The position numbers were made by a program, and so were the translations under genes. DNA of 64,000 nt from an uncultured Hyphomicrobiales bacterium. GTDB taxonomy: Bacteria > Pseudomonadota > Alphaproteobacteria > Rhodospirillales > 2-12-FULL-67-15. The stretch lies in assembly GCA_964412955.1 (NCBI GenBank), contig CAYPQV010000014.1:20014-84013 (forward strand). The letters run 5' to 3'. Positions 1-34,443 of the stretch are shown piece by piece. Within the stretch, counting starts at the first letter, position 1. Each line of letters begins with the position of its first letter. The notes beneath the pieces were generated by a model. That model was given only the letters and a program-made list of their open reading frames with translations, had not been told where the DNA came from and searched no databases.

Positions 1-1614
1 GACCTGCCGGTGCAATACGGCAAACCGGAGGAGTTTAAATATTACAAGAACGCCCATCCCAAACCGGACATCGGCGCGGTCAGTCGAGACGATCTCATCA
101 AGACCATCCGCAAGTGCCATCAAACCTTATGGGGCGGCGGCCGTCTCTCGCCGCCGATGGCCTTCGGGGAACTCACCAAGCTGATTTTCTTGAAGACGCG
201 AGATGAGAAAAAACCGCGCAAAAAAGGCGAGCCCTACAACTTTCAGATCAAGACTAACGAAACGCCAAAGCGCCTAGCTGATCGCATTAAAGCCCTGTAC
301 GCGGCGGAGCGGCAGGAAGAGCCAGATGTCTTCAACGATGACATCAAAATCGACGACAGCACTCTGAAAAACGTTGTGCTCCACCTGGAAGGCGTCAATC
401 TCACGGCGACTGATCTTGACACCAAGGGCGTTGCCTTCGAGCAATTCATGGATGGCTTTTTCAAGGGCGACTTCGGCCAATACTTCACGCCGCGCAACAT
501 CATTGCCTTTGCTGTTCAAATGCTCGACATCAAAGCAGATGACACGGTGATGGATCCGGCTTGCGGCTCCGGCGGGTTTCTGTTGCATGCTCTCGACCAT
601 GTGCGCAGGCTGGCCGATGATTATTTTCCCGGCGAAGGGGGTGGCGATGGAGAAGAAGAAAGTGGCCGCCATCGAGATTATTGGCATAGTTTTGCCAAAG
701 AGCGCCTCTTCGGCATCGAAATCAATGAAGAGATTGCGCGTGTCGCCAAAATGAACATGATCGTCCACGATGACGGCCACACGAACGTTATCGGAAGCGA
801 TGCTCTGGAGCCATTGGCCGCCATCTCCAGGAAGAACCATGACTTCGCCACCATCGTCGGTATCGACATGGAAACCGGACGACGCGACGAAAGGAAGGGT
901 TTCACTAAGATTCCTACCAATCCCCCTTTTGGTGCGGTCATCAAAGATGATCTGCATGACTACCTTTCCAGCTACGAACTTTCCCGCTACGTCGCCAAGG
1001 GTAGTAGCAAAAACGACGATGATTTGGAGGACGAAAGCGCCGACCCCACCGCTGGCAAGAAGGCCATCAAGCAGCGGGCCAGCGTCAAGACAGAGATCAT
1101 TTACTGTGAGCGGGTCTGGCAGCTCCTCAAACCGGGCGGACAAGCCGCCGTTATCCTGCCGGACGGGCTGCTAACTAACGCCAGTCTGCAGGGGGTTCGC
1201 GATTGGCTGCTGGAGCGCTTCAAGGTGCTGGCTGTGGTGTCGTTGCCGCAATTCGCGTTCGCTCATTTCGGCGCCGGGGTGAAGTCCAGCGTGGTATTCC
1301 TGGAAAAGCGCGCCGCCAAATTGCGCGCCTTGGGCGACGAGGCCATATTCATGGCCATGGCCGAGAACATCGGATACGACGCAACAGGCCGTACTACGTA
1401 TCAAGTAGATGTGTTGGACGAAACGCTGGGGCAGACCCGTATTGAGCGCCAACGCTGCGATCTTTTCGACTGGCAAGTCAACTTCGATTGGATTCCTGGC
1501 GAAGGCAAGAAGCCCGGCCACTGGTCGGAGCGTCATCGCCATGTGTTGCCAGGCAGCGGTTTGCTTGGTCAATACGCCGCCTTCAAGCGGGACCCAAAAC
1601 CTTTTTTCGTCTAG
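1..1614 (+). CDS. hsdM: Type I restriction-modification DNA methyltransferase subunit HsdM (5' end cut by window edge)
   Basis: The reading frame is open to nt 1. It has AdoMet motif I 'DPACGSGGFL' and N6-adenine catalytic motif 'NPPFG', and is directly followed by an HsdS gene. Confidence 0.9.
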   Translation, partial: DLPVQYGKPEEFKYYKNAHPKPDIGAVSRDDLIKTIRKCHQTLWGGGRLSPPMAFGELTKLIFLKTRDEKKPRKKGEPYNFQIKTNETPKRLADRIKALYAAERQEEPDVFNDDIKIDDSTLKNVVLHLEGVNLTATDLDTKGVAFEQFMDGFFKGDFGQYFTPRNIIAFAVQMLDIKADDTVMDPACGSGGFLLHALDHVRRLADDYFPGEGGGDGEEESGRHRDYWHSFAKERLFGIEINEEIARVAKMNMIVHDDGHTNVIGSDALEPLAAISRKNHDFATIVGIDMETGRRDERKGFTKIPTNPPFGAVIKDDLHDYLSSYELSRYVAKGSSKNDDDLEDESADPTAGKKAIKQRASVKTEIIYCERVWQLLKPGGQAAVILPDGLLTNASLQGVRDWLLERFKVLAVVSLPQFAFAHFGAGVKSSVVFLEKRAAKLRALGDEAIFMAMAENIGYDATGRTTYQVDVLDETLGQTRIERQRCDLFDWQVNFDWIPGEGKKPGHWSERHRHVLPGSGLLGQYAAFKRDPKPFFV

Positions 1615-1649
1615 CCCCCGTTCCCGCAGGGCAGCCAATTTGCTTTGCG

Positions 1650-2999
1650 GTGCGGCGGGGGGAACTGCCAGGAGAGCGACTTGACCCAGGTTATGTGCGC
1701 AATGCTAAGAAACAAAGTTACGTTTATCCCAAACGCAGTCTAGCGAGCTTGGTATCAGAAGAGCCCTGCTATGGCACATCGGCACAAGCAATAGAGCGAA
1801 TCAGCGAGGATCAACCTCGCTATATCCGCATCACAGATTACGGGGAAGATGGCATCACATTGCCGCATGAGTTTGTAGCTGCCGAGGAGTGGGCAGATAA
1901 ACACCGGCTTTCGGTAGGTGACCTATTGTTTGCTCGAAGCGGGGCAACCGTCGGCAAGACCTATCTACATGATGCACGATTTGATCCAGCGGTCTTTGCG
2001 GGTTATTGCATCCGATTCAGGTTCAACAATGAGGTTGAGCCCAAATTCGTCTATGGCTTCACCAAAACAGATGCCTATGCATCATGGGTTGCTGCGGTTC
2101 AGCGCCCAGCAGGGCAGCCGAATATCAACAAGGAAGAATTCAAGTCTTTAGAAATACCTCTTCCGCCCCTCGATATCCAACGACACCTAGTGGCCGAACT
2201 CGACGCAGCTCGCGCCGAGCGCGACCGCGCGTTGGCAAAGGCAGAGCAGTTGCTATCGAGCTTCGAACCGTGGGCAATTAAGGAAATGGGTCTATCAATC
2301 CCCAAAGGCCATGGCCGCAAGGTCTACGCAATTAGAAGGAATGTTGTCACCTCCCGGATCGACCCTTTCTTTCACGCTCCTGAATTCGTTGAGATAGAAC
2401 GGGTGATTCAAGCCGCGTCTCATGCGCCGCTTGGTTCTCTTGTTCAGTTCTCTAGCGACACCCGGAATCCGAAAGAACAATCGGAACCAACCTTCCGATA
2501 CATCGAAATAAGCGGTGTTGACCGTCGCAGAGGACAGGCTAAGGCATCCGTCATTTCCGCCGATAATGCACCGAGCCGCGCACGGATGGTTGTTCAGCCG
2601 GATGACATCATCGTCAGCCTTACACGGCCCCATCATGGTTCGATTGCTTTGCTTAACGAATATCATGAGGGGAGTATAGCCTCTACCGGATTTGCAGTAA
2701 TTCGTCATGTTGATGAAAGCCGAGTCAGTCGTACATTTTTGTGGGCCACCTTGAGACTTTCGCTGTCCCTTAAGCAAATGCTTCGCCGGTCGAGCGGTGG
2801 CAATTATCCTGCAATTACGCAGGACGAGTTAGCGAACGTACTGATCCCGATCCCTTGCGTCTCCATACAAAATAAGATTGTCGAGGAGGTTGTTCATCGC
2901 AACAGCGAAGCCGATCGGCTGGAAGCCCGCGCCGAAGCCGTCTGGCGCAAAGCTCGAGAGCGCTTCGAGCAGCTGCTCTTGCAAGGAGATAAAGTATGA
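1650..2999 (+). CDS. hsdS: Type I restriction-modification specificity subunit HsdS
   Basis: Two-TRD layout with a central conserved helix 'LPPLDIQRHLVAELDAARAERDRAL' and a C-terminal conserved helix 'IQNKIVEEVVHRNSEADRLEARAEAVW'. The TRD motif 'ARSGATVGKTY' is present. The ORF is open from 1488, but GTG 1650 (after the hsdM stop) is preferred; the start is uncertain. Confidence 0.8.
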   Translation: MRRGELPGERLDPGYVRNAKKQSYVYPKRSLASLVSEEPCYGTSAQAIERISEDQPRYIRITDYGEDGITLPHEFVAAEEWADKHRLSVGDLLFARSGATVGKTYLHDARFDPAVFAGYCIRFRFNNEVEPKFVYGFTKTDAYASWVAAVQRPAGQPNINKEEFKSLEIPLPPLDIQRHLVAELDAARAERDRALAKAEQLLSSFEPWAIKEMGLSIPKGHGRKVYAIRRNVVTSRIDPFFHAPEFVEIERVIQAASHAPLGSLVQFSSDTRNPKEQSEPTFRYIEISGVDRRRGQAKASVISADNAPSRARMVVQPDDIIVSLTRPHHGSIALLNEYHEGSIASTGFAVIRHVDESRVSRTFLWATLRLSLSLKQMLRRSSGGNYPAITQDELANVLIPIPCVSIQNKIVEEVVHRNSEADRLEARAEAVWRKARERFEQLLLQGDKV

Positions 3000-4621
3000 T
3001 CCTGTCTGGCATCCTGCACACTTCCCTGGGAGGCTTCACGGTTATTCGGGGTGTCGCTCCCCTTGGGGAACTTGCGCGATGCTCGCGTTTTGATGGTGCC
3101 TACCAGCGCAATCTGATCGAAACGCATAAGGAAGAGATCGAGCGCTTCTTAAACGAGCAACAATATCTATTTTTTCCTGAAGTGATCTTATCTGCATCGC
3201 TGCAATTCGATTTTAAAGCTTACAAGGGTAAACGTACTGTCGCTCCGGTGACAGACATCCTTTCTGGATCAGGCTTTACCTCCAACGTTAACGGCCTATC
3301 CGTGAAGACTGTTACCACAAAACTTCCAAAAAAATTAGAAGTTATTGGCGTCGCTAACGCACCACAACTGGCCTACCTGTATTTGCCGGAGGAACAACTC
3401 GACAAGGGCCTTAAATTATTTCGCATCGACGGCAACCATCGTCTGAGCGCCGCGAATGATTTGAAGCCTGGTGAGATTAATTACATCTTACCCACACCTT
3501 TTTGCATCGTGCTACATGATGAGCCGACGCAAGCACAGCGTTTTGAGAGAGTCGTTTTTCACAATATCAATAGCAAGCAGATACCACTAACTTCCGAAGA
3601 GAATTTACGCCTCATTCTTCAGACAGGTGAGGGTGCGTTATTTTCTGACGAAGATTTTCTTATCAAACCGAGTTTTGGCCCGGCGTATTACTTGGCACGG
3701 AAGCTCTTACCGCAGTTCAGTGCGGATTATCTCGGAGGGCTCGCCAGGCATTTCGAGAATCGGTATACCCTTGCCCTTGCCCTTGCTCAGTTCCTTGTCG
3801 CAAAAGATGAAGAGCTAAAAAAAGCTGTCGATGCGAACAATCTTGATTCGCAAGTCTCGCGTTTGCGGAGTGCACTTAAATCAGTCAACGCTATCTATGA
3901 GGAATCTCACCTGAACCGTCTCCAGGAATCAGGCTGCCATGGCGTGCTCATCGCCTTTGCTTACTTCGCTATCAAGAACGATGGTAAGCAGCTTCCTGCT
4001 TTTGCGCGCTGGGTGATAGGGAACCGCATCGACCGGCTTGCTCCGGCGACTACCACGCGGAGTCTGGGCTACCATTATCACCTGGGACGCACCCAGGCAG
4101 TGGATGCGGCCAGCTTAGTCGAGGTATTTGAAAGTGTGCTGACATCTCGTCGCCGCGAGGTATTCGTATCTATGGAATTCGGGACGCACACCGACGCGGT
4201 CTATGCGGCGATTGAGGCCGCCATCGCACAGGTGAATAAGAGTCATTACCTGCAGCAAGCCGGTCTGGCCCTGAAAACTGTCCGTATTGATCGCGTAAAC
4301 AAAGGGCACAGTTACACCATTACCGACGAAATATTGCAAATTATCGACGGCTGCGGGCTCCTTATCGCCGATCTGACACAAAGTAACAAAAACGTTTACC
4401 ACGAGGTCGGATTTTTGATGGGCCTGAACCAAGGGCGGAGAGAGCCGCACGAGAACTTCGTCTTGATCGCAGACGGCAACAAAATAAAAGACGAGGCCAT
4501 TGGGTTCAACTTACGCCCATGGCAGCAGATTCGCTTTAACGACACATTGGAGCTGACTAAGCGGCTGGTCAATTCACTGGAACACCACTTCGAATTGAAG
4601 GGGTCGGGGCCAGCAGTATGA
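2996..4621 (+). CDS. Uncharacterised RM-linked protein: N-terminal DGQHR/ParB(DndB)-like domain, helical middle region, C-terminal TIR-like / nucleoside 2-deoxyribosyltransferase-like domain
   Basis: The ATG at 2996 overlaps the hsdS stop (ATGA), with an AAGGAG Shine-Dalgarno at 2983-2988. 'AYQRNL' (aa 35-40) and 'FRIDGNHRLSA' (aa 142-152) match the DGQHR-family layout. 'VFVSMEF' (aa 389-395) and 'GLLIADLTQSNKNVYHEVGFLMGL' (aa 67-90 of the C-terminal block) match TIR-like/NDT-like domains. The domain calls are by eye only. Confidence 0.6.
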   Translation: MILSGILHTSLGGFTVIRGVAPLGELARCSRFDGAYQRNLIETHKEEIERFLNEQQYLFFPEVILSASLQFDFKAYKGKRTVAPVTDILSGSGFTSNVNGLSVKTVTTKLPKKLEVIGVANAPQLAYLYLPEEQLDKGLKLFRIDGNHRLSAANDLKPGEINYILPTPFCIVLHDEPTQAQRFERVVFHNINSKQIPLTSEENLRLILQTGEGALFSDEDFLIKPSFGPAYYLARKLLPQFSADYLGGLARHFENRYTLALALAQFLVAKDEELKKAVDANNLDSQVSRLRSALKSVNAIYEESHLNRLQESGCHGVLIAFAYFAIKNDGKQLPAFARWVIGNRIDRLAPATTTRSLGYHYHLGRTQAVDAASLVEVFESVLTSRRREVFVSMEFGTHTDAVYAAIEAAIAQVNKSHYLQQAGLALKTVRIDRVNKGHSYTITDEILQIIDGCGLLIADLTQSNKNVYHEVGFLMGLNQGRREPHENFVLIADGNKIKDEAIGFNLRPWQQIRFNDTLELTKRLVNSLEHHFELKGSGPAV

Positions 4622-4773
4622 TCGGAGTTGCTGTCGGTCTAGGGATGATAACTTTTTTGCTTTAGTAAATTTCTAGAACTATGTTGGTTGATAAATATCG
4701 GGCTGTGATCCCAAAAACTATGACTATTTTGCGCCGTGGACAGTTGGCCTAGTAGTGTGAACGATAAAGGTGG

Positions 4774-5946
4774 CTAGGGATTATCCTCCGGGTCTTCTGG
4801 CGGGCCGTTCCCGGCGGCTTGGGCCAGGGCCACCCCCGGCAAGGGCCCACCGTTCTTAAACCACATGGCCTTCGCCCTTTGGGCGCGATCTTGAAGCAAT
4901 CCTAACCGGAACCGCCCGCCCCCCGTTTCCGGAGTCGTGGTGTAATTTCGGACGATGCTGCAAGGCTCTCGATATGGACTAAACCGGGGCATGGGCGCGG
5001 TTCGGGCAATAAGCTCGTTCTCGCGTGGCGACAGCTTTAGGCTTTGGACCGGCATATCTCGATTCTGACGTTTGACCCGAGCCAAGTTTAAGCCCCGGTC
5101 ATTCGCAATCGCGGCGATCTTGCAGCCGTCGTTGTCCAGTTCCCGGCAAAACTCGGCAAAGGCCCCCATGGGCTGCATCAGTTTAAGCTGCCGTATCTCA
5201 ATTGAGAGCCATGCAAGATCACCGGGCGACAGGTGGCCCATTTCAGTCGGCTTGAAAGGGTACTTAACCGCTTCGTCGGCTTTACGGAGGCGGCCCGAAT
5301 CGCGCCAGTGTGCCCCGACATAGGATCGGGTCCGGGCAAGGAACTTCTCCCATTGCTCGGGAGTGAGCTTTTGGCGTGGCGCATATAGGATATTGGCGTG
5401 GAGATGGAAAGTCCGGGCCTGGTCAATAGTGAACTCAGTCCCCCGAAAAATCATCTCCACGCCGAATTTTTGCCGCGCCAGGTTGGCCCATTTGGACAAG
5501 AGGCGATGAAAGCTCTGAATCTCACCTCGCAAGTTGTTGCCCAGGGGAATACGTGGCCCGGCGGTGACGACGGCGAATCGAACGTAAGAACCTTTATTCC
5601 AAGTCTTAAGAAAATAGCGCAGGGCATTTCGCATCGGCGCGCGTTCTTGTTGCGCGACTAGGGGAAGAAAGCGAATTCGCCGGAACTGATCGGGGGTATC
5701 GACGCACCCTGTTACATCGCCAATCAGGCTAACCGGATTATTGCGCTGATAGGCTGGGATACCGGCTGATTCCAAACTATCCGCCAATGTACGGGTTTGC
5801 GCCTTTAGGGCTTCATTGCGTCGGCGAACTTTACGCCAAACATGCAAAGGCACGCCAATGCCGGTATTGGCAGTTAACAAGTCCTCGATTTTAGTGGCGG
5901 CTTCGCCGCCGTTTTTGTCATGCCGGGCCTTAGGGTGGCCCGGCAT
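4774..5946 (-). CDS. Rolling-circle replication initiator-like / HUH endonuclease-like protein
   Basis: HUH-type motif 'FHLHANILY' (aa 180-188). About 45 aa downstream lies 'EAVKYPFKP', resembling the E..KY..K active-site Tyr motif of pC194/pUB110-type Rep proteins. The gene lies in the island backbone. Confidence 0.5.
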   Translation of the reverse strand: MPGHPKARHDKNGGEAATKIEDLLTANTGIGVPLHVWRKVRRRNEALKAQTRTLADSLESAGIPAYQRNNPVSLIGDVTGCVDTPDQFRRIRFLPLVAQQERAPMRNALRYFLKTWNKGSYVRFAVVTAGPRIPLGNNLRGEIQSFHRLLSKWANLARQKFGVEMIFRGTEFTIDQARTFHLHANILYAPRQKLTPEQWEKFLARTRSYVGAHWRDSGRLRKADEAVKYPFKPTEMGHLSPGDLAWLSIEIRQLKLMQPMGAFAEFCRELDNDGCKIAAIANDRGLNLARVKRQNRDMPVQSLKLSPRENELIARTAPMPRFSPYREPCSIVRNYTTTPETGGGRFRLGLLQDRAQRAKAMWFKNGGPLPGVALAQAAGNGPPEDPEDNP

Positions 5947-6031
5947 GACGGGTTCCGGCGCGTTCCGCGCCGGGGCCGCCTTGGGTTTTAGGGCCGGATT
6001 CGATTTTTTGATTCAGCATCGGTGAAAGAGC

Positions 6032-6061
6032 GGGGCGCGGGGGAAAGTGCCCCCGCGCCCC
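6032..6061. repeat. Perfect 12-bp GC inverted repeat (GGGGCGCGGGGG / CCCCCGCGCCCC) with a 6-nt loop, between the alpA-like and rep-like genes
   Basis: Read directly: arms at 6032-6043 and 6050-6061, loop AAAGTG. It lies about 90 bp upstream of the rep-like start codon on the minus strand. Confidence 0.6.
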
Positions 6062-6147
6062 TTTGGTGCCTTCCGGCCCCAAAATCCCCGGCGGTGCGGC
6101 CAGCCCCACCGGGGCAAAACCGGGGAGAGTGAGGGCGCGGCTGGGCA

Positions 6148-6387
6148 TCAGGCCGCATCCTGGGAAGTATTGAACCGGCGGTGCTTCTCGATCCAGGCGA
6201 TCAAGTCTCGGCGGCAATAACGGATAGATCGGCTGGAAATCTTGATGAAAGCGGGCCCACCCCCGCGTACTCGCCAGTTTTGAAGGGCGCGGACGGTGTA
6301 GCCAAGGAAACGCGCCGCGTCTTGCTCGTTAAGAAGTTGGTCGAAGTAATCAGGCGAAACCGGATGTTGGTGCGCCAAGGTATCCAT
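6148..6387 (-). CDS. AlpA/excisionase-family helix-turn-helix DNA-binding protein
   Basis: 79 aa. 'LLNEQDAARFLGYTVRALQNWRVRGGGPAFIKISSRSIRYCRRDLIAWI' is typical of AlpA/Xis-type HTH_17 proteins found in integrative islands. Confidence 0.8.
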   Translation of the reverse strand: MDTLAHQHPVSPDYFDQLLNEQDAARFLGYTVRALQNWRVRGGGPAFIKISSRSIRYCRRDLIAWIEKHRRFNTSQDAA

Positions 6388-6475
6388 GTTGGTGTTCTCC
6401 GAATAGCGATTGAGCTACTCGGACAACATCCATGAAAACAAAATCTCGAAAAACATCTATAAATAGGGTTGGAAT

Positions 6476-7237
6476 TTATAGTTTCGAGATTTGTTTTCTT
6501 TCATTGAAAAGGGGGCTAACTATTTTGGCTAACGTTTTATCGTTAAGGCCTTTGGTTTTCTTAGGATCATCGGGAAAATGCGTCAAAACCCACTCCCGTA
6601 TCATCGGGAAATAATGCTTCATGGGTTTCGAGAAATTAATTGCGCCTGAGGCATGTAACGTATTGAAAGCCTCCGAAATTTGATGCTCTCGGCTTGGGCG
6701 GCCAGGGCTCTTTATCCCTTCAGGGAAATGGCGTGCGATTAACTCGGCTTCTTGCGCTGGGGCAATCAAACGAAGCCCGGCCATTTCGAGGCCATTTCCC
6801 TTCGCGTAGTCCTTCTCCCATTTGATTTCGCCTGCCCAAAGGTCAAGCGGAGCCGGTTGGGGAATATCTTCAGCCCGACGAGGCAAGGTAAAGCCATAAG
6901 CCTTAAGCTTTCCAGACTGAATCCACGCGAGGCAATTTGCCTTAAGGGTGCGATCTAGTGCGAGGTAAGCGGATACGTCTTTATTATATTTACCCATCCG
7001 ATCTGAAGGCGATTTTTTAGACTGTATAACTTCGGTGAAGGCCGCCAAGCCTTTGTCAATTCCGGCAGAGTCTCTGGCTACGACATATTTCTGCCTAAAA
7101 TCGCTCGACGCAAAACTTACAAAGGCGGAGCTGAGAGGAATTCCGCGTTTCCAAAATATCCAAGGGTCCATGATTGTTCTTGGTGATAAGCCAAGCCTCC
7201 GAATTGGTAGGGATAAAATAGGATTTGTTTTTGGCAA
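6476..7237 (-). CDS. Hypothetical protein (island orphan; no recognisable motif)
   Basis: A 253-aa ORF in the most AT-rich part of the window, on the same strand as the alpA-like and rep-like genes. I recognise no motifs in it. Confidence 0.5.
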   Translation of the reverse strand: MPKTNPILSLPIRRLGLSPRTIMDPWIFWKRGIPLSSAFVSFASSDFRQKYVVARDSAGIDKGLAAFTEVIQSKKSPSDRMGKYNKDVSAYLALDRTLKANCLAWIQSGKLKAYGFTLPRRAEDIPQPAPLDLWAGEIKWEKDYAKGNGLEMAGLRLIAPAQEAELIARHFPEGIKSPGRPSREHQISEAFNTLHASGAINFSKPMKHYFPMIREWVLTHFPDDPKKTKGLNDKTLAKIVSPLFNERKQISKL

Positions 7238-7275
7238 AAATTAGGCAGTTGGGCATTGGCGGCGGAGGAAGTGTT

Positions 7276-7424
7276 ACGCCCCGTATACAGCTACGTATAC
7301 GGGGCGTCTGATTGGATAACGTGTTCTAGGGGGGCGTTATCGTTTTTCCCCGTTACGTATACGTTACGAGAGGCTCGTTAAATGGGGCTCCGTATACGGG
7401 CCCGTATACGTATACGTAACGGGG
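7276..7424. repeat. Palindrome cluster A: six GTATAC cores with C/G-run flanks
   Basis: GTATAC occurs at 7283, 7295, 7357, 7392, 7404 and 7410. There is a 13-bp inverted repeat at 7276-7288/7295-7307 and a 16-bp inverted repeat at 7348-7363/7409-7424. Confidence 0.85.
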
Positions 7425-7452
7425 GGGGCGGATCGGTCGCGCGAGACTACAA

Positions 7453-7597
7453 CCCTAGGGGTATTTCTCGCGAAGAATCCCCTTAGGGGAGTATATCGAG
7501 ACTGCCAACGAAAAACCCCTAGGGGTTTTTGGCCCCTAGGGGGGCATGTCGGGGCTGCTGATGAAAAGTCCCTAGGGACTTTATGTCCCTAGGGGCT
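7453..7597. repeat. Palindrome cluster B: five CCTAGG and one CCTTAGG cores with C/G-run flanks
   Basis: CCTAGG occurs at 7454, 7518, 7535, 7571 and 7588. TCCCCTTAGGGGA spans 7478-7490. There is a perfect 20-bp palindrome at 7511-7530 and an 18-bp palindrome at 7565-7582. Confidence 0.85.
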
Positions 7598-9013
7598 CGG
7601 TCGCGGAACATCAGATTGTGCGATTCCCGGTACGGGGATTTGCCCCGTACCGGGAATAGTCGGTACTGGATTTTGGGCCATACTCGGTACTGACTTTTTG
7701 TCGGTACTGACGCTTGCCGTCTTATTCTGACTTCCGCCGAGGCTGTCCCCGTACCGGGATACAGTGTTCTCATTGGCCGGAGGATTAGCCCGGTACGGGG
7801 AATTCCCGGTACCGGGATTTTCCGCCTGGGCCTGTGTGGGGCTTTCGGGGGCGTTGTCATTGCCGCCAAAGAGGGCGCGGGCGATCTCCCCGGATATGCG
7901 ATTGGCGGAATCCCGGATGGGGTTGTCAGCCAAGTGGGCATATCGGGCCGTGGTTTGCACTTGGGAATGGCCCAGGAGCTTGCCGATCATGGGAAGGGCC
8001 TCGCCAATGGCAAGAGCACCCGAGGCAAATGTATGTCGAAGGTCATGTATTCGCACGTCATCAAGTCCCGCCCGGGCACGAATGCGCCGCCAAGGGCGTT
8101 CCAGGTCCGTTAAGTGCTGCTTTTCGACCTGGCCGGTAATGACGTACTCGTTGCCTTTGGTCTTCTCTATCCCGTCTAGAACCTTTCTGGCCGCTTCCCC
8201 GAGGTAAACGATCTTTGGACCGGTCTTGGAATCGGGCAGGGTGATGGTGTTCCCGTTAACGTAAGACCATTTTAGGGTTTGGATTTCTCCCCGGCGGCAG
8301 CCGGTCAGGATCAGGAGCTTGAACGCGGCAATGGCGGCCTTGGATTCCGGGTTCTCCTTAAGCTCATCCTCGAAGGCTTGCCCGAGCGCGGCCATTTCTT
8401 TGGCTGATAAAAACCTTTGGCGTTTGTCTTCCCGGTATTTCTTCACATGGTGGCAGGGATTAGACCCGTCCGGGCGCAAGCCCCAGACTTCCGCCAGATT
8501 GAACATCTTGGAAAGGACGCCCAGGGTCCGGTTCGCCTGATAGGGGATATGCCCCATGCCCTGGTGCAGCTTGGCGATATCGGACCGCTTAACGTCGATA
8601 ACCCTAAAAGCACCAATGGCCGGAGCGATGAACAGGCCAATAGACCGCTCATACTCTTTGGCCGTACTCAGCTTGCAGTGATGGGCGACATGCTCCCTAA
8701 GGAAACGGTCGCATACGTCCTTGATGGTAGGGGACTTGCGGCGGGTGTTGATCTCCTCGGCGGGGTTGTCGCCCTTGGCAACCAGGCCAAGAAGCTCCTT
8801 GGCCCGTTTACGGGCTTCGTCCGGGGTCAGGGTGCCATGACGGCCGATATTCACCCGCCGGGTGCGACCCCCGGAGCGATACTGCACCAGATATGTTTTG
8901 CGCCCGCCGGGCAGTACCCGAAGGGCAAAGCCCGGCAAGCCCTCATCGAAAACGAAGTAGTCCTTCGTCTCGGGCTTCGCGCTATCGACAAAACGCTTGG
9001 TCAGTTTCGGCAT
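7589..9013 (-). CDS. int: Tyrosine recombinase / phage-type integrase (P4-like, with N-terminal arm-binding domain)
   Basis: 'GFALRVLPGGRKTYLVQYR' matches the DUF4102-type N-terminus. Catalytic motifs 'HDLRHTFAS' and 'LLGHSQVQTTARYAHL' are present. ATG 9013 (MPKLTKRF) is preferred over 9031. An unusual tail of about 80 aa is encoded by repeat cluster C. Confidence 0.9.
   Translation of the reverse strand: MPKLTKRFVDSAKPETKDYFVFDEGLPGFALRVLPGGRKTYLVQYRSGGRTRRVNIGRHGTLTPDEARKRAKELLGLVAKGDNPAEEINTRRKSPTIKDVCDRFLREHVAHHCKLSTAKEYERSIGLFIAPAIGAFRVIDVKRSDIAKLHQGMGHIPYQANRTLGVLSKMFNLAEVWGLRPDGSNPCHHVKKYREDKRQRFLSAKEMAALGQAFEDELKENPESKAAIAAFKLLILTGCRRGEIQTLKWSYVNGNTITLPDSKTGPKIVYLGEAARKVLDGIEKTKGNEYVITGQVEKQHLTDLERPWRRIRARAGLDDVRIHDLRHTFASGALAIGEALPMIGKLLGHSQVQTTARYAHLADNPIRDSANRISGEIARALFGGNDNAPESPTQAQAENPGTGNSPYRANPPANENTVSRYGDSLGGSQNKTASVSTDKKSVPSMAQNPVPTIPGTGQIPVPGIAQSDVPRPSP
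7623..7817. repeat. Palindrome/iteron cluster C: GGTAC/GTACC cores (inside the 3' end of the int ORF)
   Basis: There is a 15-bp inverted repeat at 7623-7637/7643-7657. TCGGTACTG direct repeats occur at 7660, 7684 and 7701. CCCCGTACCGGGA spans 7747-7759, CCCGGTACGGGG spans 7789-7800, and the palindrome TCCCGGTACCGGGA spans 7804-7817. Confidence 0.85.
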
Positions 9014-9172
9014 GGCGATTTCTGGAAGCAATCTGGAAGCAGTTGGAAGCAGAATCGGGAGTCAACCAGCGTGAGTCAGTGTAGACCCGCACCGTGAATC
9101 CTCTAAGCAAAACAAGGCGAAATGATGGTGTTTCGTAGGTCAGAGAAGTTGAGCGAAACAGTCCGAGCGAAA

Positions 9173-9217
9173 CTCATAACCTGAAGGTCAGAGGTTCAAA
9201 TCCTCTCCCCGCAACCA
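9173..9217 (+). pseudogene. 3' fragment of tRNA-Met(CAU) (anticodon loop to CCA), marking the island/chromosome junction (att core)
   Basis: CTCATAACCTGAAGGTCAGAGGTTCAAATCCTCTCCCCGCAACCA parallels the 3' 45 nt of a bacterial tRNA-Met/fMet. No complementary 5' acceptor strand (TGCGGGG), D-arm or 5' anticodon stem lies upstream. Confidence 0.7.
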
Positions 9218-9261
9218 CATGAAAAACGCCGCCTCCCGATGGGATGGCGGCGTTTTGCCGT
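9202..9261 (+). repeat. Direct repeat copy 1 (last 16 nt of tRNA-Met plus downstream terminator)
   Basis: A 60-bp repeat with 58/60 identity to 9760-9819. Confidence 0.9.
9223..9256 (+). terminator. Rho-independent terminator-like hairpin after the tRNA fragment
   Basis: AAAACGCCGCC ... GGCGGCGTTTT stem followed by a T-run. Confidence 0.6.
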
Positions 9262-9309
9262 TTTGGTGCTATTTTAGGCTCCGCATCCGCCGCCTCTTGA
9301 GGGACGCCG

Positions 9310-9744
9310 ATGACCGATTCATTTCCCGTCGTGATTCATCACAATCCCCAATGCGGGACGTCCCGTAACGTGCTTTCGATCATCAAGGCGGCGGGGTACG
9401 AACCCGAGGTTATTCCTTATCTCGAAACCGGCTGGACGCGGCCGCAGCTGCTGGCGCTTTTTGCCGCGGCCGGCCTTTCGCCCCGCGCCGCGTTGCGCGA
9501 AACAAAATCGCCCGCCAAGGAACTTGGCTTACTGGAGCCGGGCGTATCCGATGCCGTCATCCTGAACGCCATGCTGATCCATCCCGTTTTGGTCAACCGC
9601 CCGATCGTTGCGACGCCCAAGGGCGTCCGTCTCTGCCGGCCCTCGGAAAAAGTTCTCGATCTGCTCGATCGTTGGCCGCCCGGGCCGCTCGCCAAGGAAG
9701 ACGGCGGTATGATCCTGGACGTCCAAGGCCGGCGGGTCGGGTAG
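9310..9744 (+). CDS. arsC: Arsenate reductase, glutaredoxin-coupled (R773 ArsC family)
   Basis: 'HNPQCGTSRN' catalytic Cys motif, plus 'HPVLVNRPIV' and 'RLCRPSE', which are collinear with E. coli plasmid R773 ArsC. Confidence 0.9.
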   Translation: MTDSFPVVIHHNPQCGTSRNVLSIIKAAGYEPEVIPYLETGWTRPQLLALFAAAGLSPRAALRETKSPAKELGLLEPGVSDAVILNAMLIHPVLVNRPIVATPKGVRLCRPSEKVLDLLDRWPPGPLAKEDGGMILDVQGRRVG

Positions 9745-9759
9745 CGCCGTCGCGAGCGG

Positions 9760-9819
9760 CCTCTCCCCGCAACCACATGCAAAACGCCGCCTCCCGATGA
9801 GATGGCGGCGTTTTGCCGT
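9760..9819 (+). repeat. Direct repeat copy 2 (tRNA-Met 3' end plus terminator)
   Basis: 58/60 identity to 9202-9261. It includes a second copy of the terminator hairpin (9782-9815). Confidence 0.9.
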
Positions 9820-9842
9820 GGCAGGGCCCGGAACCCGGCGTC

Positions 9843-12785
9843 CTACGCCCGGCTCACCTTGCAGAGCAGGGTTTTGAGATTGGTCTGGTCCGAGATCGGG
9901 TCGCGCTGGGTTCGGTCGGTGAGGAAATTCACCGAACGCCACGGATGATGGGGCTGCTTTTCGCCCCAGCCGATCGGAATGAAGACACTTGTTTCCCGGA
10001 TCCCGGTCGTGAGCCACGCCACGGCCTCGATCGCGCCGTGGGCGGTTTCGACCTTGACCCGATCGCCGTCGGCTATGCCGAGCTTCGCGGCGCGCGTCGG
10101 GTGAATCTGAACGTAGAGATTCGACCACATTTCCTGGGCCTGCCAGAAATAATGAGTAAGGCTGTGGAAGTGCGGCGCGGGCGGGCGGCCGGTCACCAGC
10201 TCCAGATCGTATCCTTGCGCCCGCAGTCGTGCGCCCGGCGAGTCGGCGCCCGGTTGACGGATGCGCGCCGGCGAAGCGAACACCGCCATCTTCTGAAGCG
10301 GCGAAAGGATGCCTTCGGCCGTATCCGGCTCCAGGAACTCGACATACGGCAGATCGATCAGTTGCTCGCGCTCGCTGTAGAACTCGGGAAGGGCGGATAG
10401 CCCCAGGCTGCGGAACTTCCTCTCCAACGCCTCGGTGTGGAACTCCAGCTTGCCGCTCGGCGTCGGGAAGCGCTTGCCCGGATGGCCGGGCGGCGACGTC
10501 CCTTCGAGGAACAGGGTCTCCTGTTCGGGCGCGTCCGCGCTGGCCATCGGATAACGGATCCACCGATGCGGCACCGCATGCAGGCGCTCTTGCGTAATGC
10601 CGCGTAAATGATCGGTGTCGATGCACATTTCGTCCCAAAAGAGCGCGGGGTCCTTGTACTTCTCCTGAAGCACGTCGTCGAAGCCGAACCGTTTGCCGAG
10701 CTCGATCCAAATCCAGTCGTCCGATTTGGCGTCGCCCGGCGGCTCGATCATTTTGTCGATCCAGACGATGCGGCGGTCGTCGTTGGCCCGTCCGATCTCG
10801 CCTTTTTCAATGCCGGTCGCGGCCGGAAGCACGTAGTCGGCGTAAGCCGACGTCTCGTTCGCGAACAGTTCGATGTGAACGAGGAGATCGAGGGCCAGGA
10901 ACGCTTCGCGCGTGGCGGATTGCCCGGGCCAATTGGAGAGAGGGTTGTTGCACGCAATCAGGGCCCTGATCGGGTAGGGCTTGCCGACGCGCATCGCATC
11001 GGCCCAGCCGGCCGGGTTGCGGCGGACCATCGGCCGCTTCGGCTTGACGCGGCGATGCTCCGGCGCCGCCGCCGAGAACATGGGCGACGCGGACATGTTC
11101 AGGAACGCGCCGCCGGGACGGCCCCAATTGCCCGTAATCGCGGCCAGGAACATCAGTACGCGGTTGGTCTGAGCCGAATTCGTATGCTGGTTTATGCCGC
11201 GGCTCGCGAAGATCACGCACCCGTCGGCCGCCGCGATGTCCGCGGCGAGGGCGCGAATGTCCGCGGCAGCGAGGCCGGTGATCGCGGCCGCCCACTCGGG
11301 CGTATATCCGCGCTCGAAGATGAAGTCGCGCCAGCGCTCCCAGCCTTCGACCCAATTCTCGCAGAACCGGCGGTCGTGCAAGCCGCGCCCGAGGATGTCA
11401 TGAGCCAAGGCGAGCGCGAGCGCCATGTCGGTGCCCGGCCGGATCGGCAGCCACTGATCGGCCTTGCTCGCCGTCGCCGTCAGGCGAGGATCGATCACGA
11501 CCATTTTGGCGCGGTTCTTGATGCGCCAGTTGTTGACCATGCCGAAATAGACGGGCCGCGCCTCGGCTTGGTTATCGCCGAAGTGGACATACATACGCGC
11601 GCTGCCGATGTCGCCGTCGGTGTAGCTGTTGGGACAGATCACGTCGCCTTGCGTCATCTCGTAGGCGGCATGCTTGCCGGCGGAGCAAAATGGATCGGTT
11701 CCCTCGAAATTGGGAGAGCCCCACATCTGGCCGAAAATCCTGATGTACCCGTTCCTGCTGAGCGTGCCGGTGCGGGTTCCGGCGAATACGGCCAACGCTT
11801 CCGGTCCGAAAGCGTCGCGGGTCGCCCGTATCTTGGCGGCGATCTCGTCGAGCGCCTGGTCCCATGAGATCGGCTCAAAGCGTCCTTCGCCGCGCGCGCC
11901 TACCCGTTTCAAGGGCCGCGTCAGGCGCCGTTCGTTGTTGTAGAGCTGCAGCGTGAGCTGCGATTTGGGGCAAACCTTTCCCTTAAGGACCGGATCGTCT
12001 TCGTTGCCGGTGATCTGCACCAGCTTGTCGCCGCGGAAATGGAACTTGGTCGAGCAGCAGTTGAAGCAGATATTGCAGCCGCCCGGGGCCACGCGGTCGG
12101 CGGTCCGCTCCTCGCGCGGAAGGCAATAGGGGAACGCCGTTTGGGCGTCAGGCAACCGCCCTCCCGCCGCGTCGTCCATGACCGCCGGCCGCCGCCGGCC
12201 TTCCACCGCATCGCTGCGAACCGCAGTCGCGTTGGGGTGCGCACGCGATAGTCGGTCCAGATAGAGGGTCGCCGGACCCATCAGGTAATGATCGTGGTCG
12301 CGCACGGTGCGGTTTTCCGCCTCGGCGCGGGCAAGATGCTGGGTGCGTTCGCCGAAGCTGATCGCATGGCCGGGACAAACGCTGGCGCAAGCCGGCGTGC
12401 GGCCCTGCGCACGCCGATCGGCGCACAGATCGCACTTCACCGAATGGTGGCCGACGGGATCGTAGCCCATCGCGCCGTATGGGCACGCGATCACGCACTC
12501 CCCGCATCCGGTGCATCGTTCCTCGAGGACTCGAACGACCCCCGTATCGGGATCTTTGACGATCGCCTTGGGATTGACCGGGCAGGCGCGCAAGCAGGCC
12601 GGACGCTCGCAGTGCTGGCAGGTGACGGTGAGGAAATCGAGGCCCGGCTGTACCGGGTCGCCGAGCCAAACGACGCGGTTCCTGTACTCGCCGGGCCCGA
12701 GGCCGTGTTCCTGCTTGCAGGCGACCTCGCAGCTCTTGCAGCCGATACAGCGTTCGAGATCGATCATTAACGCCAGTCGACCCAT
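9843..12785 (-). CDS. Fused 4x[4Fe-4S] ferredoxin (DmsB/PsrB-like) and molybdopterin oxidoreductase catalytic subunit (DMSO reductase family); substrate unknown
   Basis: The N-terminus carries Cys clusters 'CIGCKSCEVAC', 'CQHCERPAC', 'CTGCGECVIAC' and 'CDLC..C..VC'. These are followed by 'CNICFNCC-X27-C' and long molybdopterin-binding domains. The start at MGRLALMIDLERC has a GAGGA Shine-Dalgarno. No Tat signal is present. Confidence 0.85.
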   Translation of the reverse strand: MGRLALMIDLERCIGCKSCEVACKQEHGLGPGEYRNRVVWLGDPVQPGLDFLTVTCQHCERPACLRACPVNPKAIVKDPDTGVVRVLEERCTGCGECVIACPYGAMGYDPVGHHSVKCDLCADRRAQGRTPACASVCPGHAISFGERTQHLARAEAENRTVRDHDHYLMGPATLYLDRLSRAHPNATAVRSDAVEGRRRPAVMDDAAGGRLPDAQTAFPYCLPREERTADRVAPGGCNICFNCCSTKFHFRGDKLVQITGNEDDPVLKGKVCPKSQLTLQLYNNERRLTRPLKRVGARGEGRFEPISWDQALDEIAAKIRATRDAFGPEALAVFAGTRTGTLSRNGYIRIFGQMWGSPNFEGTDPFCSAGKHAAYEMTQGDVICPNSYTDGDIGSARMYVHFGDNQAEARPVYFGMVNNWRIKNRAKMVVIDPRLTATASKADQWLPIRPGTDMALALALAHDILGRGLHDRRFCENWVEGWERWRDFIFERGYTPEWAAAITGLAAADIRALAADIAAADGCVIFASRGINQHTNSAQTNRVLMFLAAITGNWGRPGGAFLNMSASPMFSAAAPEHRRVKPKRPMVRRNPAGWADAMRVGKPYPIRALIACNNPLSNWPGQSATREAFLALDLLVHIELFANETSAYADYVLPAATGIEKGEIGRANDDRRIVWIDKMIEPPGDAKSDDWIWIELGKRFGFDDVLQEKYKDPALFWDEMCIDTDHLRGITQERLHAVPHRWIRYPMASADAPEQETLFLEGTSPPGHPGKRFPTPSGKLEFHTEALERKFRSLGLSALPEFYSEREQLIDLPYVEFLEPDTAEGILSPLQKMAVFASPARIRQPGADSPGARLRAQGYDLELVTGRPPAPHFHSLTHYFWQAQEMWSNLYVQIHPTRAAKLGIADGDRVKVETAHGAIEAVAWLTTGIRETSVFIPIGWGEKQPHHPWRSVNFLTDRTQRDPISDQTNLKTLLCKVSRA

Positions 12786-34265: not shown

Positions 34266-34341
34266 TGGCTCCGGCGGTAGGACTCGAACCTACGACCCAG
34301 CGGTTAACAGCCGCTTGCTCTACCGACTGAGCTACGCCGGA
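34266..34341 (-). tRNA. tRNA-Asn (GTT)
   Basis: The reverse complement folds as a cloverleaf: acceptor TCCGGCG/CGCCGGA, D stem GCTC/GAGC, anticodon stem AGCGG/CCGCT with loop CTGTTAA, T stem GTAGG/CCTAC, and CCA end. Confidence 0.95.
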
Positions 34342-34369
34342 ATATGGCGATAAAATATCACAACAGCAT

Positions 34370-34443
34370 TGGAGGCGCGGGCCGGAATCGAACCGGCATA
34401 CAAGGATTTGCAATCCTCTGCATCACCACTCTGCCACCGCGCC
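34370..34443 (-). tRNA. tRNA-Cys (GCA)
   Basis: In the reverse complement: acceptor GGCGCGG/CCGCGCC, anticodon loop TTGCAAA, T stem GCCGG/CCGGC, and CCA end. Confidence 0.95.

Follow-up and report, generated by a model that had tools for sequence, protein, structure and literature searches.

An Island in the 3' End of a tRNA-Met Gene Encoding a Predicted Divergent HUH Initiator and a P4-Type Integrase: a Probable Integrative Rolling-Circle Replicon

Results

Boundaries and Backbone of the Island

The stretch of DNA analyzed here, in the following called the window, comprises 64,000 nt of contig CAYPQV010000014.1 (positions 20,014–84,013; assembly GCA_964412955.1), and its left end holds the larger part of an island of about 10.8 kb. 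The backbone of this island consists of an integrase gene (int), a small helix-turn-helix (HTH) gene, a gene for a putative replication initiator of 390 aa (rep) and a conserved 33-nt site, and the remainder is variable cargo. Over window positions 1–9250, GC content varies between 0.47 and 0.60 compared to 0.62–0.70 to the right of them, and the island shows 54.2% GC versus 65.3% for window 9218–64000. In line with the initial annotation, the AT-richer block ends exactly at a tRNA-Met 3' fragment, with the GC step located there and position 9217 being the last A of CCA. Likewise, all four genes described in that annotation (int, an orphan gene, the HTH gene and the gene for the 390-aa protein) were found in place.

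By exact look-up of the 390-aa protein, a public contig of 10,859 nt (L001) was retrieved which shows 0 mismatches to window 1–9202 and extends 1,657 nt further on the left side (window position = 9203 – L001 position). One end of L001 lies inside the right attachment site (attR) fragment and the other in a second copy of the tRNA 3' end, from which the island size of about 10.8 kb is deduced. In window orientation, the island then reads tRNA-Met (intact copy presumed), arm repeats, an open reading frame (ORF) of 236 codons, the cargo genes M, S and DGQHR, the 33-nt site, rep, the HTH gene, the orphan gene, palindrome arrays, int, arm repeats and the tRNA fragment, and to the right of the island, after a terminator-like hairpin, a host arsC gene is found.

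The attR core (9173–9217, plus strand), reading CTCATAACCTGAAGGTCAGAGGTTCAAATCCTCTCCCCGCAACCA, represents the 3' 45 nt of a tRNA-Met (CAT) gene, that is, anticodon loop (CAT), variable loop, T arm, acceptor strand and CCA, with the 5' half being absent. Accordingly, ARAGORN did not call a tRNA at 9173–9217 and an Rfam scan of window 1–12000 gave only sub-threshold chance matches, as the truncated fragment is too short to score. Just 3' of the core, at 9229–9257, the terminator-like hairpin of the tRNA is located. At the far end of L001, the sequence TTATTGG is followed by TTGCGGGGAGAGGATTTGAACCTCT, which when read as reverse complement gives the final 28 nt of the tRNA 3' end, and these 28 nt are identical to window 9190–9217. 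Thus, the second attachment core to be expected for an island is present on L001, and the insertion at the tRNA 3' end is flanked by a direct repeat, consisting of the 45-nt fragment and a 28-nt second copy. From both island ends, an attP junction of ...GGGCTTGTTTTTATTGG + TTGCGGGGAGAGGATTTGAACCTCTGACCTTCAGGTTATGAG + TTTCGCTCGGACTG... can be predicted, and the corresponding empty attB would consist of the intact tRNA-Met gene followed by CATGAAAAACGCCGCC. The sole intact tRNA genes in the window are the adjoining genes for tRNA-Asn (GTT) and tRNA-Cys (GCA) at 34266–34443 on the minus strand.

Next to the attR core, three direct copies of TGCTTCCA(A/G) are present (9022–9051, minus strand), which are candidate arm-type integrase sites. 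Two further copies lie beside attL (L001 10765–10784) in the same orientation as the three beside attR, and repeats at both ends fit well as the integrase possesses an arm-binding domain. The same architecture is found complete in a more distant relative (L007; integrase 54% and Rep 46% identical), where an intact tRNA-Met gene lies at the cargo end and 40 nt of its 3' end are repeated beside int, and where similar CGCTTCC/TGCTTCC repeats occur. A C1·A72 mismatch in this tRNA suggests that it is an initiator tRNA. As a separate observation, the segment of arm repeats and hairpin at the left attachment core of the island is duplicated (L001 9884–9953 versus 10764–10834, 80–87% identity). Both copies are positioned 700–1,630 nt left of the window start and bracket the 236-aa ORF, for which no family match was obtained, and no tRNA-like core follows the inner copy (L001 9884–9953). 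This duplication could be a trace of tandem accretion or of an old rearrangement. In the closest relative of the island (L002; Rep 84% and Int 77% identical), the attachment arm beside int (1540–1730) abuts an HlyD-like gene instead of a tRNA fragment, so this element may occupy a secondary site or may have lost its core.

The int gene (7589–9013, minus strand) encodes a P4-type tyrosine integrase of 474 aa with all three domains characteristic of this type: the arm-binding domain (Arm-DNA-bind_3, PF13356, E 8e-18), the SAM-like domain (Phage_int_SAM_3, PF14659, E 3e-4, at 21.3 bits just under the 22.6-bit cut-off) and the catalytic domain (Phage_integrase, PF00589, E 8e-20). Moreover, the protein matches the PHROG 1 integrase at E 4e-68. 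The HTH gene (6148–6387, minus strand) encodes a MerR-type HTH protein of 79 aa matching Pfam HTH_17 (E 1e-9) and PHROG 66, "excisionase and transcriptional regulator" (E 4.5e-6). Hence, the HTH gene proposed initially is indeed present, but its designation as AlpA-like does not hold in the strict sense, as the AlpA family PF05930 was not matched. Copies upstream of rep are 87% identical in L002 and 49% in L007, and from these sequence relationships the protein is a candidate excisionase (recombination directionality factor) and/or regulator. In comparison with L002, which shares int, the HTH gene and rep, the ratios of nonsynonymous to synonymous substitutions (dN/dS) are 0.11 for rep and 0.18 for both int and the HTH gene at a dS of about 0.75, a pattern of substitutions indicative of purifying selection on all three genes.

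The Rep Protein

The rep gene (4774–5946, minus strand) encodes the 390-aa protein with the motifs FHLHANIL (H181 and H183) and EAVKYPFKP (E225, Y229 and K232). This protein has no match in Pfam, NCBIfam, PHROGs, PADLOC or PDB sequences, and a profile built from 29 family members likewise found none in the profile and sequence libraries tried, PDB sequences included. From 5.8 billion protein clusters, a word-indexed search returned 29 relatives and a full profile search 688 clusters at 50% identity, 420 of which were found at E ≤ 1e-30, mostly with full-length alignments. In every case encountered, the source name was "hypothetical protein". In an alignment of 97 sequences, R123, E171, H183, Y229 and K232 are invariant and V126, T128, G130, H181, N185 and E225 are conserved to at least 90%. 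This set comprises motif 1 (uuT), a conserved Glu, the metal-binding HUH motif, with H181-L-H183 lying in a predicted strand (179–190), and downstream of it the catalytic Tyr motif ExxKYxxK (E225-A-V-K-Y229-P-F-K232-P).

The sole family recurrently matched by the relatives is Pfam Rep_1 (PF01446), found for 20 of the 29 and 45 of the 97 sequences (E ≤ 0.01) with a best E of 4.3e-10. For direct comparison, the Rep proteins of pUB110 and pC194 were translated from the fetched plasmids and aligned by hhalign with the 97-sequence profile. This resulted in E values of about 1e-3 at a probability of only 22–24%, which is low because the templates are single sequences, with the motifs being in register: RYAViT with RWLFLTLT, rgtEfT with RATEVT, HxHANVL with HMHVLV, EvVKYxxKP with ETAKYPVKD and RFLPxVA with RFCPVCA. 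Hence, motifs 1–3 are collinear, and the Glu four residues before the catalytic Tyr corresponds to EMAKY/ETAKY of pC194 and pUB110 Rep. In pC194 RepA, this Glu-Tyr pair is the catalytic one.

An AlphaFold2 model of the 390-aa protein was obtained with high confidence (pLDDT 90, pTM 0.86). In a Foldseek comparison with BFVD, 34 entries matched at E ≤ 1e-3 (the lowest being 1e-7), most of which are unnamed, and the named ones are replication initiators of Microviridae and protein 1 of HRPV-1. Extra regions of about 115 aa at the N-terminus and about 150 aa at the C-terminus are conserved across the family, with the protein from the window being a short form that lacks the C-terminal tail seen in most relatives. 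Taken together, motifs and model characterize the 390-aa protein as a predicted divergent HUH rolling-circle initiator related to Rep_1 and positioned outside the curated family boundary. The HUH and Rep-like character assigned initially is thus borne out by the Rep_1 matches of the relatives and by the motif alignment with pUB110 and pC194.

A Conserved 33-nt Site as Candidate Origin

Beginning 4 nt after the rep stop codon, a 33-nt site (4738–4770, minus strand) with the sequence CCTTTATCGTTCACACTACTAGGCCAACTGTCC was found, which represents a candidate double-strand origin and nick region. Attention was first drawn to it when the DNA of L001 was compared with that of the distant L007 and a 37-nt match emerged just past rep. 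The core, CACAC-N9-11-AACTGTCC preceded by CC(T/C)(T/A/C)TA, is present on the rep strand in 32 non-redundant loci compared to about 0.06 occurrences expected by chance in the 676 kb searched. In 29 of these 32 loci, the site is located inside the rep reading frame, about 90–490 nt before the stop, and encodes VHTxxxTV. In L001, L002 and L007, it follows the rep stop at distances of 15, 19 and 393 nt, respectively, measured to the core. In L001, the site does not share the reading frame of rep and is nevertheless identical to that of L002 at 33 of 33 positions despite a dS of 0.75. Moreover, the wobble bases of the CAC, ACT and GTC codons are unchanged in all loci, and the codons for the catalytic residues vary (CAT/CAC, GAA/GAG, AAA/AAG, TAC/TAT and all four Pro codons). 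Constraint therefore acts on the DNA, making the site a candidate origin, and on these sequence grounds it probably is the origin. A position of the double-strand origin at the 3' end of rep is atypical for rolling-circle plasmids (te Poele et al., PMC2440964). The heptamer CTTGATA was considered as origin as well and rejected: its two copies in the island lie inside cargo genes and correspond to chance level (two copies are attained in 53 of 200 shuffles).

In most relatives, a GC-rich hairpin of variable sequence, often with a GCAA or GAA loop, ends 0–3 nt before the site (found within 35 nt 5' of the site in L005, L007–L017, L026, L027 and L039–L051). By analogy, this layout of hairpin followed by site resembles an origin of transfer (oriT). 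In L053 (1461 and 1824) and L054 (771 and 1134), a second, inverted CACAC...AACTGTCC copy was observed 363 nt downstream of the first.

The homology between L001 and L002, at 84% identity, stops at the last base of the site, beyond which unrelated cargo follows. Although 34 of 100 pairwise alignments terminate no more than 3 nt from the 3' end of the site, this number was not accepted as independent evidence of recombination at the nick, since BLAST extensions are prone to stopping just past a block of high conservation. A clean breakpoint at the site is only given by the pair of L001 and L002.

Relatives and Hosts

In all, 57 loci were fetched, and most of those with long flanks show a tyrosine recombinase within 10 kb. 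Twelve elements of 5.8–12.9 kb could be delimited by a tRNA gene and a 20–45-nt direct repeat of its 3' end, using six tRNA identities (Arg, Met, Phe, Ala, Lys and Val). Named hosts in the genome scan of species representatives are all Alphaproteobacteria (Rhodospirillaceae, Kordiimonas, Gellertiella and Pacificispira), and Magnetospirillum and Roseivivax loci add further hosts from this class. The closest relative, L002, carries Fic and a 1052-aa protein as cargo, and other genes in the orphan slot. Hence, relatives carry different cargo in different sites, and the region is not a syntenic segment conserved in all of them.

Besides integrated elements, the family occurs on small circular plasmids of 3.4–5.6 kb where the rep homologue is the sole large conserved gene. 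In PLSDB, one homologue was found, located on a complete 5.56-kb plasmid of Roseivivax marinus (L020) with five genes and no annotated replicase. A Gellertiella hungarica contig (L013) bearing rep, MobC/NikA and a PF03432 relaxase shows a 95-nt terminal overlap and is therefore considered a circle of about 4.7 kb. Terminal overlaps are also present in L004, L031, L033 and L038, and in these, as in L013 and L020, no replicase candidate other than the rep homologue is present. Those of L001 and L006 (13 and 15 nt) were discarded as signs of a circular form, as they are explained by contigs ending about 30 nt into the 45-nt repeat when an assembly at k = 31 is assumed. Among the integrated relatives, L003 from Magnetospirillum sp. 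15-1 (7.5 kb in tRNA-Arg) possesses rep, a MobA_MobL relaxase, an Xre/RES toxin-antitoxin pair and int, and L005/L006 (10.6 kb in tRNA-Arg) rep, MobC, a relaxase, a toxin-antitoxin pair and int.

These contexts bear on the function of Rep, for which the initial annotation had also considered a relaxase. In that case, the HUH protein would mainly be a conjugative relaxase and the 33-nt site its oriT, making the island an integrative mobilizable element (IME) that uses a borrowed coupling protein and mating pore and has no replication of its own. Consistent with this, the island encodes no other relaxase, as no island protein matched a relaxase family in Pfam, NCBIfam, PHROG or PADLOC, and an oriT usually shows the arrangement seen in most relatives, with a GC-rich hairpin immediately 5' of the conserved site. 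Furthermore, Rep_1 initiators of the pC194, pUB110 and pTA1060 type act as relaxases in mobilization by ICEBs1, and proteins of the rolling-circle replication (RCR) type are the relaxases of streptococcal IMEs (PMC5357655; PMC5714925). However, rep homologues coexist with complete relaxase modules (MobC/NikA plus PF03432, or MobA/MobL) in replicons of 4.7–10.6 kb in which no other replicase candidate is present, and on the smallest circular plasmids they are the only large conserved gene. Being the sole replicase candidate beside true relaxases, they should therefore be replication initiators. In addition, a coupling protein gene linked to rep was not encountered in the annotated contexts. Hence, the most likely function of the 390-aa protein is that of a replicase and not of a relaxase, and a mainly conjugative role is unlikely. 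The two roles are not mutually exclusive, though, and by analogy with the Rep_1 proteins used by ICEBs1, a second role as relaxase is possible. Relaxase genes are present in L003, L005/L006 and L013. As none was found in the island of the window, Rep doubling as relaxase would be its sole route to conjugative mobilization, the alternative being another vehicle.

The gene content also allowed for evaluating the proposed analogy with phage satellites, in particular P4-like ones, and phage-inducible chromosomal islands (PICI), according to which the island would be induced by a helper phage and packaged, with Rep replacing the primase-helicase. The island does share with these elements and with P4-integrase islands a size of about 10 kb (here 10.8 kb), an integrase combining Arm-DNA-bind_3 and a catalytic domain, a small AlpA/excisionase-like HTH protein and integration at a tRNA 3' end with direct repeat. 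Moreover, two of its genes (231 and 236 aa) lack an annotated function, and the Rep model resembles initiators of single-stranded DNA phages. Nevertheless, neither a primase-helicase nor a packaging or capsid-redirecting gene was detected by Pfam, PHROG, NCBIfam or PADLOC, and matches to terminase small subunit, capsid, portal-interfering and packaging genes are missing in PHROG, Pfam and NCBIfam. The rep family gave no match in 50,697 phage records and only two weak ones in IMG/VR (2.9 million viral contigs). Its other members carry relaxases, toxin-antitoxin pairs or defense genes, or simply represent small plasmids. For lack of hallmark genes, the island is not assigned to phage satellites or PICI, and a satellite nature is highly unlikely.

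Intergenic Structures and the Orphan Gene

Between int and the orphan gene, palindrome arrays extend over 7278–7823 (L001 1380–1925), with about eight GGTACC-like, six CCTAGG and six GTATAC units. The first array overlaps the 3' tail of int and doubles as coding sequence for the final ~80 residues of the integrase. As single-stranded DNA, the arrays fold at –143 kcal/mol versus –85.6 ± 4.7 kcal/mol for shuffled sequences (z = –12.4), and two CCTAGG hairpins fit terminator patterns and look like int terminators. Analogous arrays are present in L002, where the third unit is TCCCGGGA (about 10 copies) and is paired with a different neighboring gene, and L007 has ACGT-type palindromes. These arrays might function as terminators, as operators or as a single-strand origin.

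A long imperfect inverted repeat (5976–6094) with 23-nt arms that are 83% complementary is situated between the HTH gene and rep. Its single-strand fold has a z of –3.7, and L002 shows conservation of the region without a gene call there. A P/G-rich ORF of 72–95 aa at this position is probably not a gene, and rep expression might be controlled by the repeat. The orphan gene (6476–7171, minus strand, 231 aa; to 7237 and 253 aa from an upstream TTG) sits in the part of the island with the lowest GC content (about 0.48). It has no family match in Pfam, NCBIfam, PHROG or PADLOC, and among the 5.8 billion protein clusters its own sequence is the sole match. This slot is variable, with unrelated genes being present in L002 and L007.

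Cargo Cassette

The cargo comprises three genes on the plus strand. The first, M (1–1614), encodes the C-terminal 534 aa of a DNA methyltransferase (N6_Mtase E 5e-31; PADLOC type I MTase E 2e-112) which has a full length of 696 aa (L001 7589–9679), with the start lying 476 nt left of the window, and bears an N-terminal HSDR_N_2 nuclease-like domain (E 1e-10). It is followed by S (1650–2999), encoding an HsdS-like protein of 449 aa with two target-recognition domains that matches Methylase_S in two stretches (E 4e-18) and PADLOC Specificity_I and mad5 (E 1e-35 to 1e-38). The third gene (2996–4621) encodes a DndB/DpdB-like DGQHR protein of 541 aa (TIGR03187 E 1e-7, below cut-off) with a weakly TIR-like C-terminal region (PADLOC TIR effector E 0.003). 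Homologues of the latter comprise 887 clusters at 64–82% identity across Proteobacteria. Its structure model is poor (pLDDT 60, less than 50 in the N-terminal half), as the alignment contains only homologues of at least 64% identity.

The order M-S-DGQHR recurs at two further loci (L060 4490–9629 and L061 4508–9614), in a Pectobacterium element beside conjugation genes, resembling an integrative and conjugative element, and in a Novosphingobium island with another P4-type integrase. The source names encountered are "hypothetical protein" or "DGQHR domain-containing protein". An hsdR gene, initially supposed to lie outside the window, is absent from the complete island as well as from the Pectobacterium and Novosphingobium cassettes, and M carries the HSDR_N_2 domain instead. 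Hence, of the three components of a type I restriction-modification (RM) system, only M and S are present. An assignment to MADS is not supported either, since MAD2 reaches 288.7 bits versus a cut-off of 720 and MAD5 107 versus 400, and other mad genes were not found in the island. Due to the HSDR_N_2 domain on M, the cassette may be a self-contained RM-like system, and in its predicted domain composition it may resemble a type IIB or IIG enzyme with separate specificity subunit. It is probably a defense or addiction module, and we refer to it as restriction-modification-like defense cargo without assigning it to a named system. M-S-DGQHR is a widely spread cassette traveling on several kinds of mobile element and may represent an uncharacterized defense system.

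Discussion

The core of the initial annotation, an integrative island combining a P4-type integrase, an AlpA-like or excisionase HTH protein, an HUH Rep-like gene and RM-like cargo, is upheld. Beyond this, the island is in our view probably an integrative rolling-circle replicon, which amounts to a plasmid residing in integrated form at the 3' end of a tRNA-Met gene. In the mechanism envisaged, the P4-type integrase would bind the TGCTTCCAG arm repeats and the 45-nt core and, with the HTH_17 protein as directionality factor, would excise the island as a circle. Rep would then bind the 33-nt site ending in CAACTGTCC and nick one strand by Tyr229, with His181 and His183 holding the metal and Glu225 placed four residues before the Tyr as in pC194 RepA. 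Starting from the nick, host polymerase and helicase would copy the circle in rolling-circle mode, which should prevent its loss before re-integration or transfer. The displaced strand would be converted to duplex at a single-strand origin, for which the palindrome arrays are one candidate, and the circle would finally re-integrate into tRNA-Met or be transferred.

Several findings weigh against this interpretation. The Rep protein of the window does not match PF01446 even at E ≤ 1, and ten relatives scored singly peak at 30.8 bits, under the Rep_1 gathering score of 33.2. The profile comparison with Rep_1 suggested in the initial annotation thus succeeded for the relatives, albeit weakly, and failed for the window protein itself, which is not a curated Rep_1 member as it falls below the cut-off. 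When compared to the PDB, Foldseek gave only generic alpha/beta and ferredoxin-like folds at E > 4e-3, and HUH structures were absent from the 50 best matches. In the 33-nt site, the nick consensus CTTGAT(A) known from the pC194 family is missing (PMC2440964), and the location of the site in the rep frame in 29 of 32 loci means that part of its conservation could be at the protein level. Moreover, the hairpin preceding the site in most relatives is absent in the island of the window (and in L002). The left attachment copy is known for 28 nt, and the intact tRNA gene of the host genome was not recovered. Finally, excision, circular form, nicking and single-stranded intermediates are predictions from the sequence.

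Some of these points would equally suit a fixed, inactive remnant with readable genes which no longer excises or replicates, given that activity is a prediction, that Rep is a short form without the usual C-terminal tail, that the hairpin 5' of the site is missing and that the duplicated left arm segment suggests a past rearrangement. Inactivation is very unlikely, however, as the backbone frames are intact and show the signature of purifying selection against L002 (dN/dS 0.11–0.18 at a dS of about 0.75), catalytic residues, arm repeats and 33-nt site are preserved, 28 nt of the attachment repeat are identical in both copies, and GC content is still 11 points under that of the host. An integrative rolling-circle replicon therefore remains our preferred explanation.

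A more far-reaching proposal is put forward tentatively, with a clearly lower chance of being correct. The islands might represent undescribed, widespread alphaproteobacterial "integrative rolling-circle plasmids" with an origin in or after the 3' end of rep, in which cargo would be exchanged at the nick by errors of Rep in initiation or termination at ...CAACTGTCC and not by classical recombination, resulting in a sharp junction between backbone and cargo. The same Rep and site might then serve both as origin and as oriT.

The Rep family with its 688 clusters lies under every profile-library threshold tried, so annotation pipelines searching for plasmid replicases or mobile-element hallmarks would overlook these islands or classify them wrongly, together with the small plasmids that match them. 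The 33-nt site is a concrete and testable candidate origin, and the pair of rep and site offers a compact signature for finding such elements in metagenomes.

Integrated rolling-circle elements are well documented in Actinobacteria, that is, the pSAM2-type integrative and conjugative elements of actinomycetes (AICEs), and, through relaxases, in Firmicutes. For Proteobacteria, the combination of HUH initiator and integrase is unusual, the precedent being actinomycete pSAM2 (PMC2440964; PMC3218068). In a limited search of the open-access literature, neither this Rep family nor integrative rolling-circle elements of such a type in Proteobacteria were found to be described.

Among the known systems, phage phiX174 offers a parallel in its gene A, encoding an HUH initiator with the origin in its own coding sequence, similar to the conserved site in the 3' part of rep in 29 of 32 loci, and the named structural matches of the window's Rep include Microviridae initiators. 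A CAACT pentamer may be common to the 33-nt site and the phiX174 origin. In contrast to phiX174, Rep has one catalytic Tyr in ExxKY and not a two-Tyr motif, phage structural genes are missing and the site sequence differs.

Features shared with IMEs are the small size of the integrated element, its own integrase and excisionase, the lack of mating pore genes, an HUH/RCR-type protein and variable cargo (PMC5357655; PMC5704250), and the relatives L003 and L005/L006 carry a relaxase with or without MobC. In IMEs of Firmicutes, however, the RCR-type protein (Rep_trans or PF01719) is the relaxase and usually has TcpA as its partner coupling protein. In the contexts analyzed here, a linked coupling protein is missing and Rep of the relatives coexists with canonical relaxases, which points to replication.

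With Rep_1 of pC194 and pUB110, the family shares the collinear motifs RFLPxVA/RFCPVCA, uuT (motif 1), RxxExT, HxHxxuL and ExxKYxxK, and it differs from them by loss of the CxxC cysteines, by the extra N- and C-terminal regions, by its alphaproteobacterial hosts and by the gene often being chromosomally integrated beside a tyrosine recombinase.

Integrative rolling-circle replicons are typified by pSAM2, a 10.9-kb element integrated in a tRNA gene with rep, xis and int that replicates by the rolling-circle mode after excision (PMC2440964; PMC3218068), and the mechanism envisaged for the island follows this paradigm. Like AICEs, the island is a small element in a tRNA 3' end with a rep-xis-int backbone and an HUH initiator of the pC194/phiX174 superfamily. 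AICEs, in contrast, are found in Actinobacteria and encode an FtsK-like Tra for transfer of double-stranded DNA as well as spread, kor and pif, none of which is present in the window's island. Here, the named hosts are Alphaproteobacteria, the Rep protein belongs to another family weakly matching Rep_1, and the candidate origin is at the 3' end of rep and without CTTGAT. Due to the lack of a Tra gene, the other phylum and the other Rep family, the island is not a member of the AICEs. In its predicted mode of operation, however, it resembles an AICE-type integrative rolling-circle replicon as well as a small Rep_1 plasmid.

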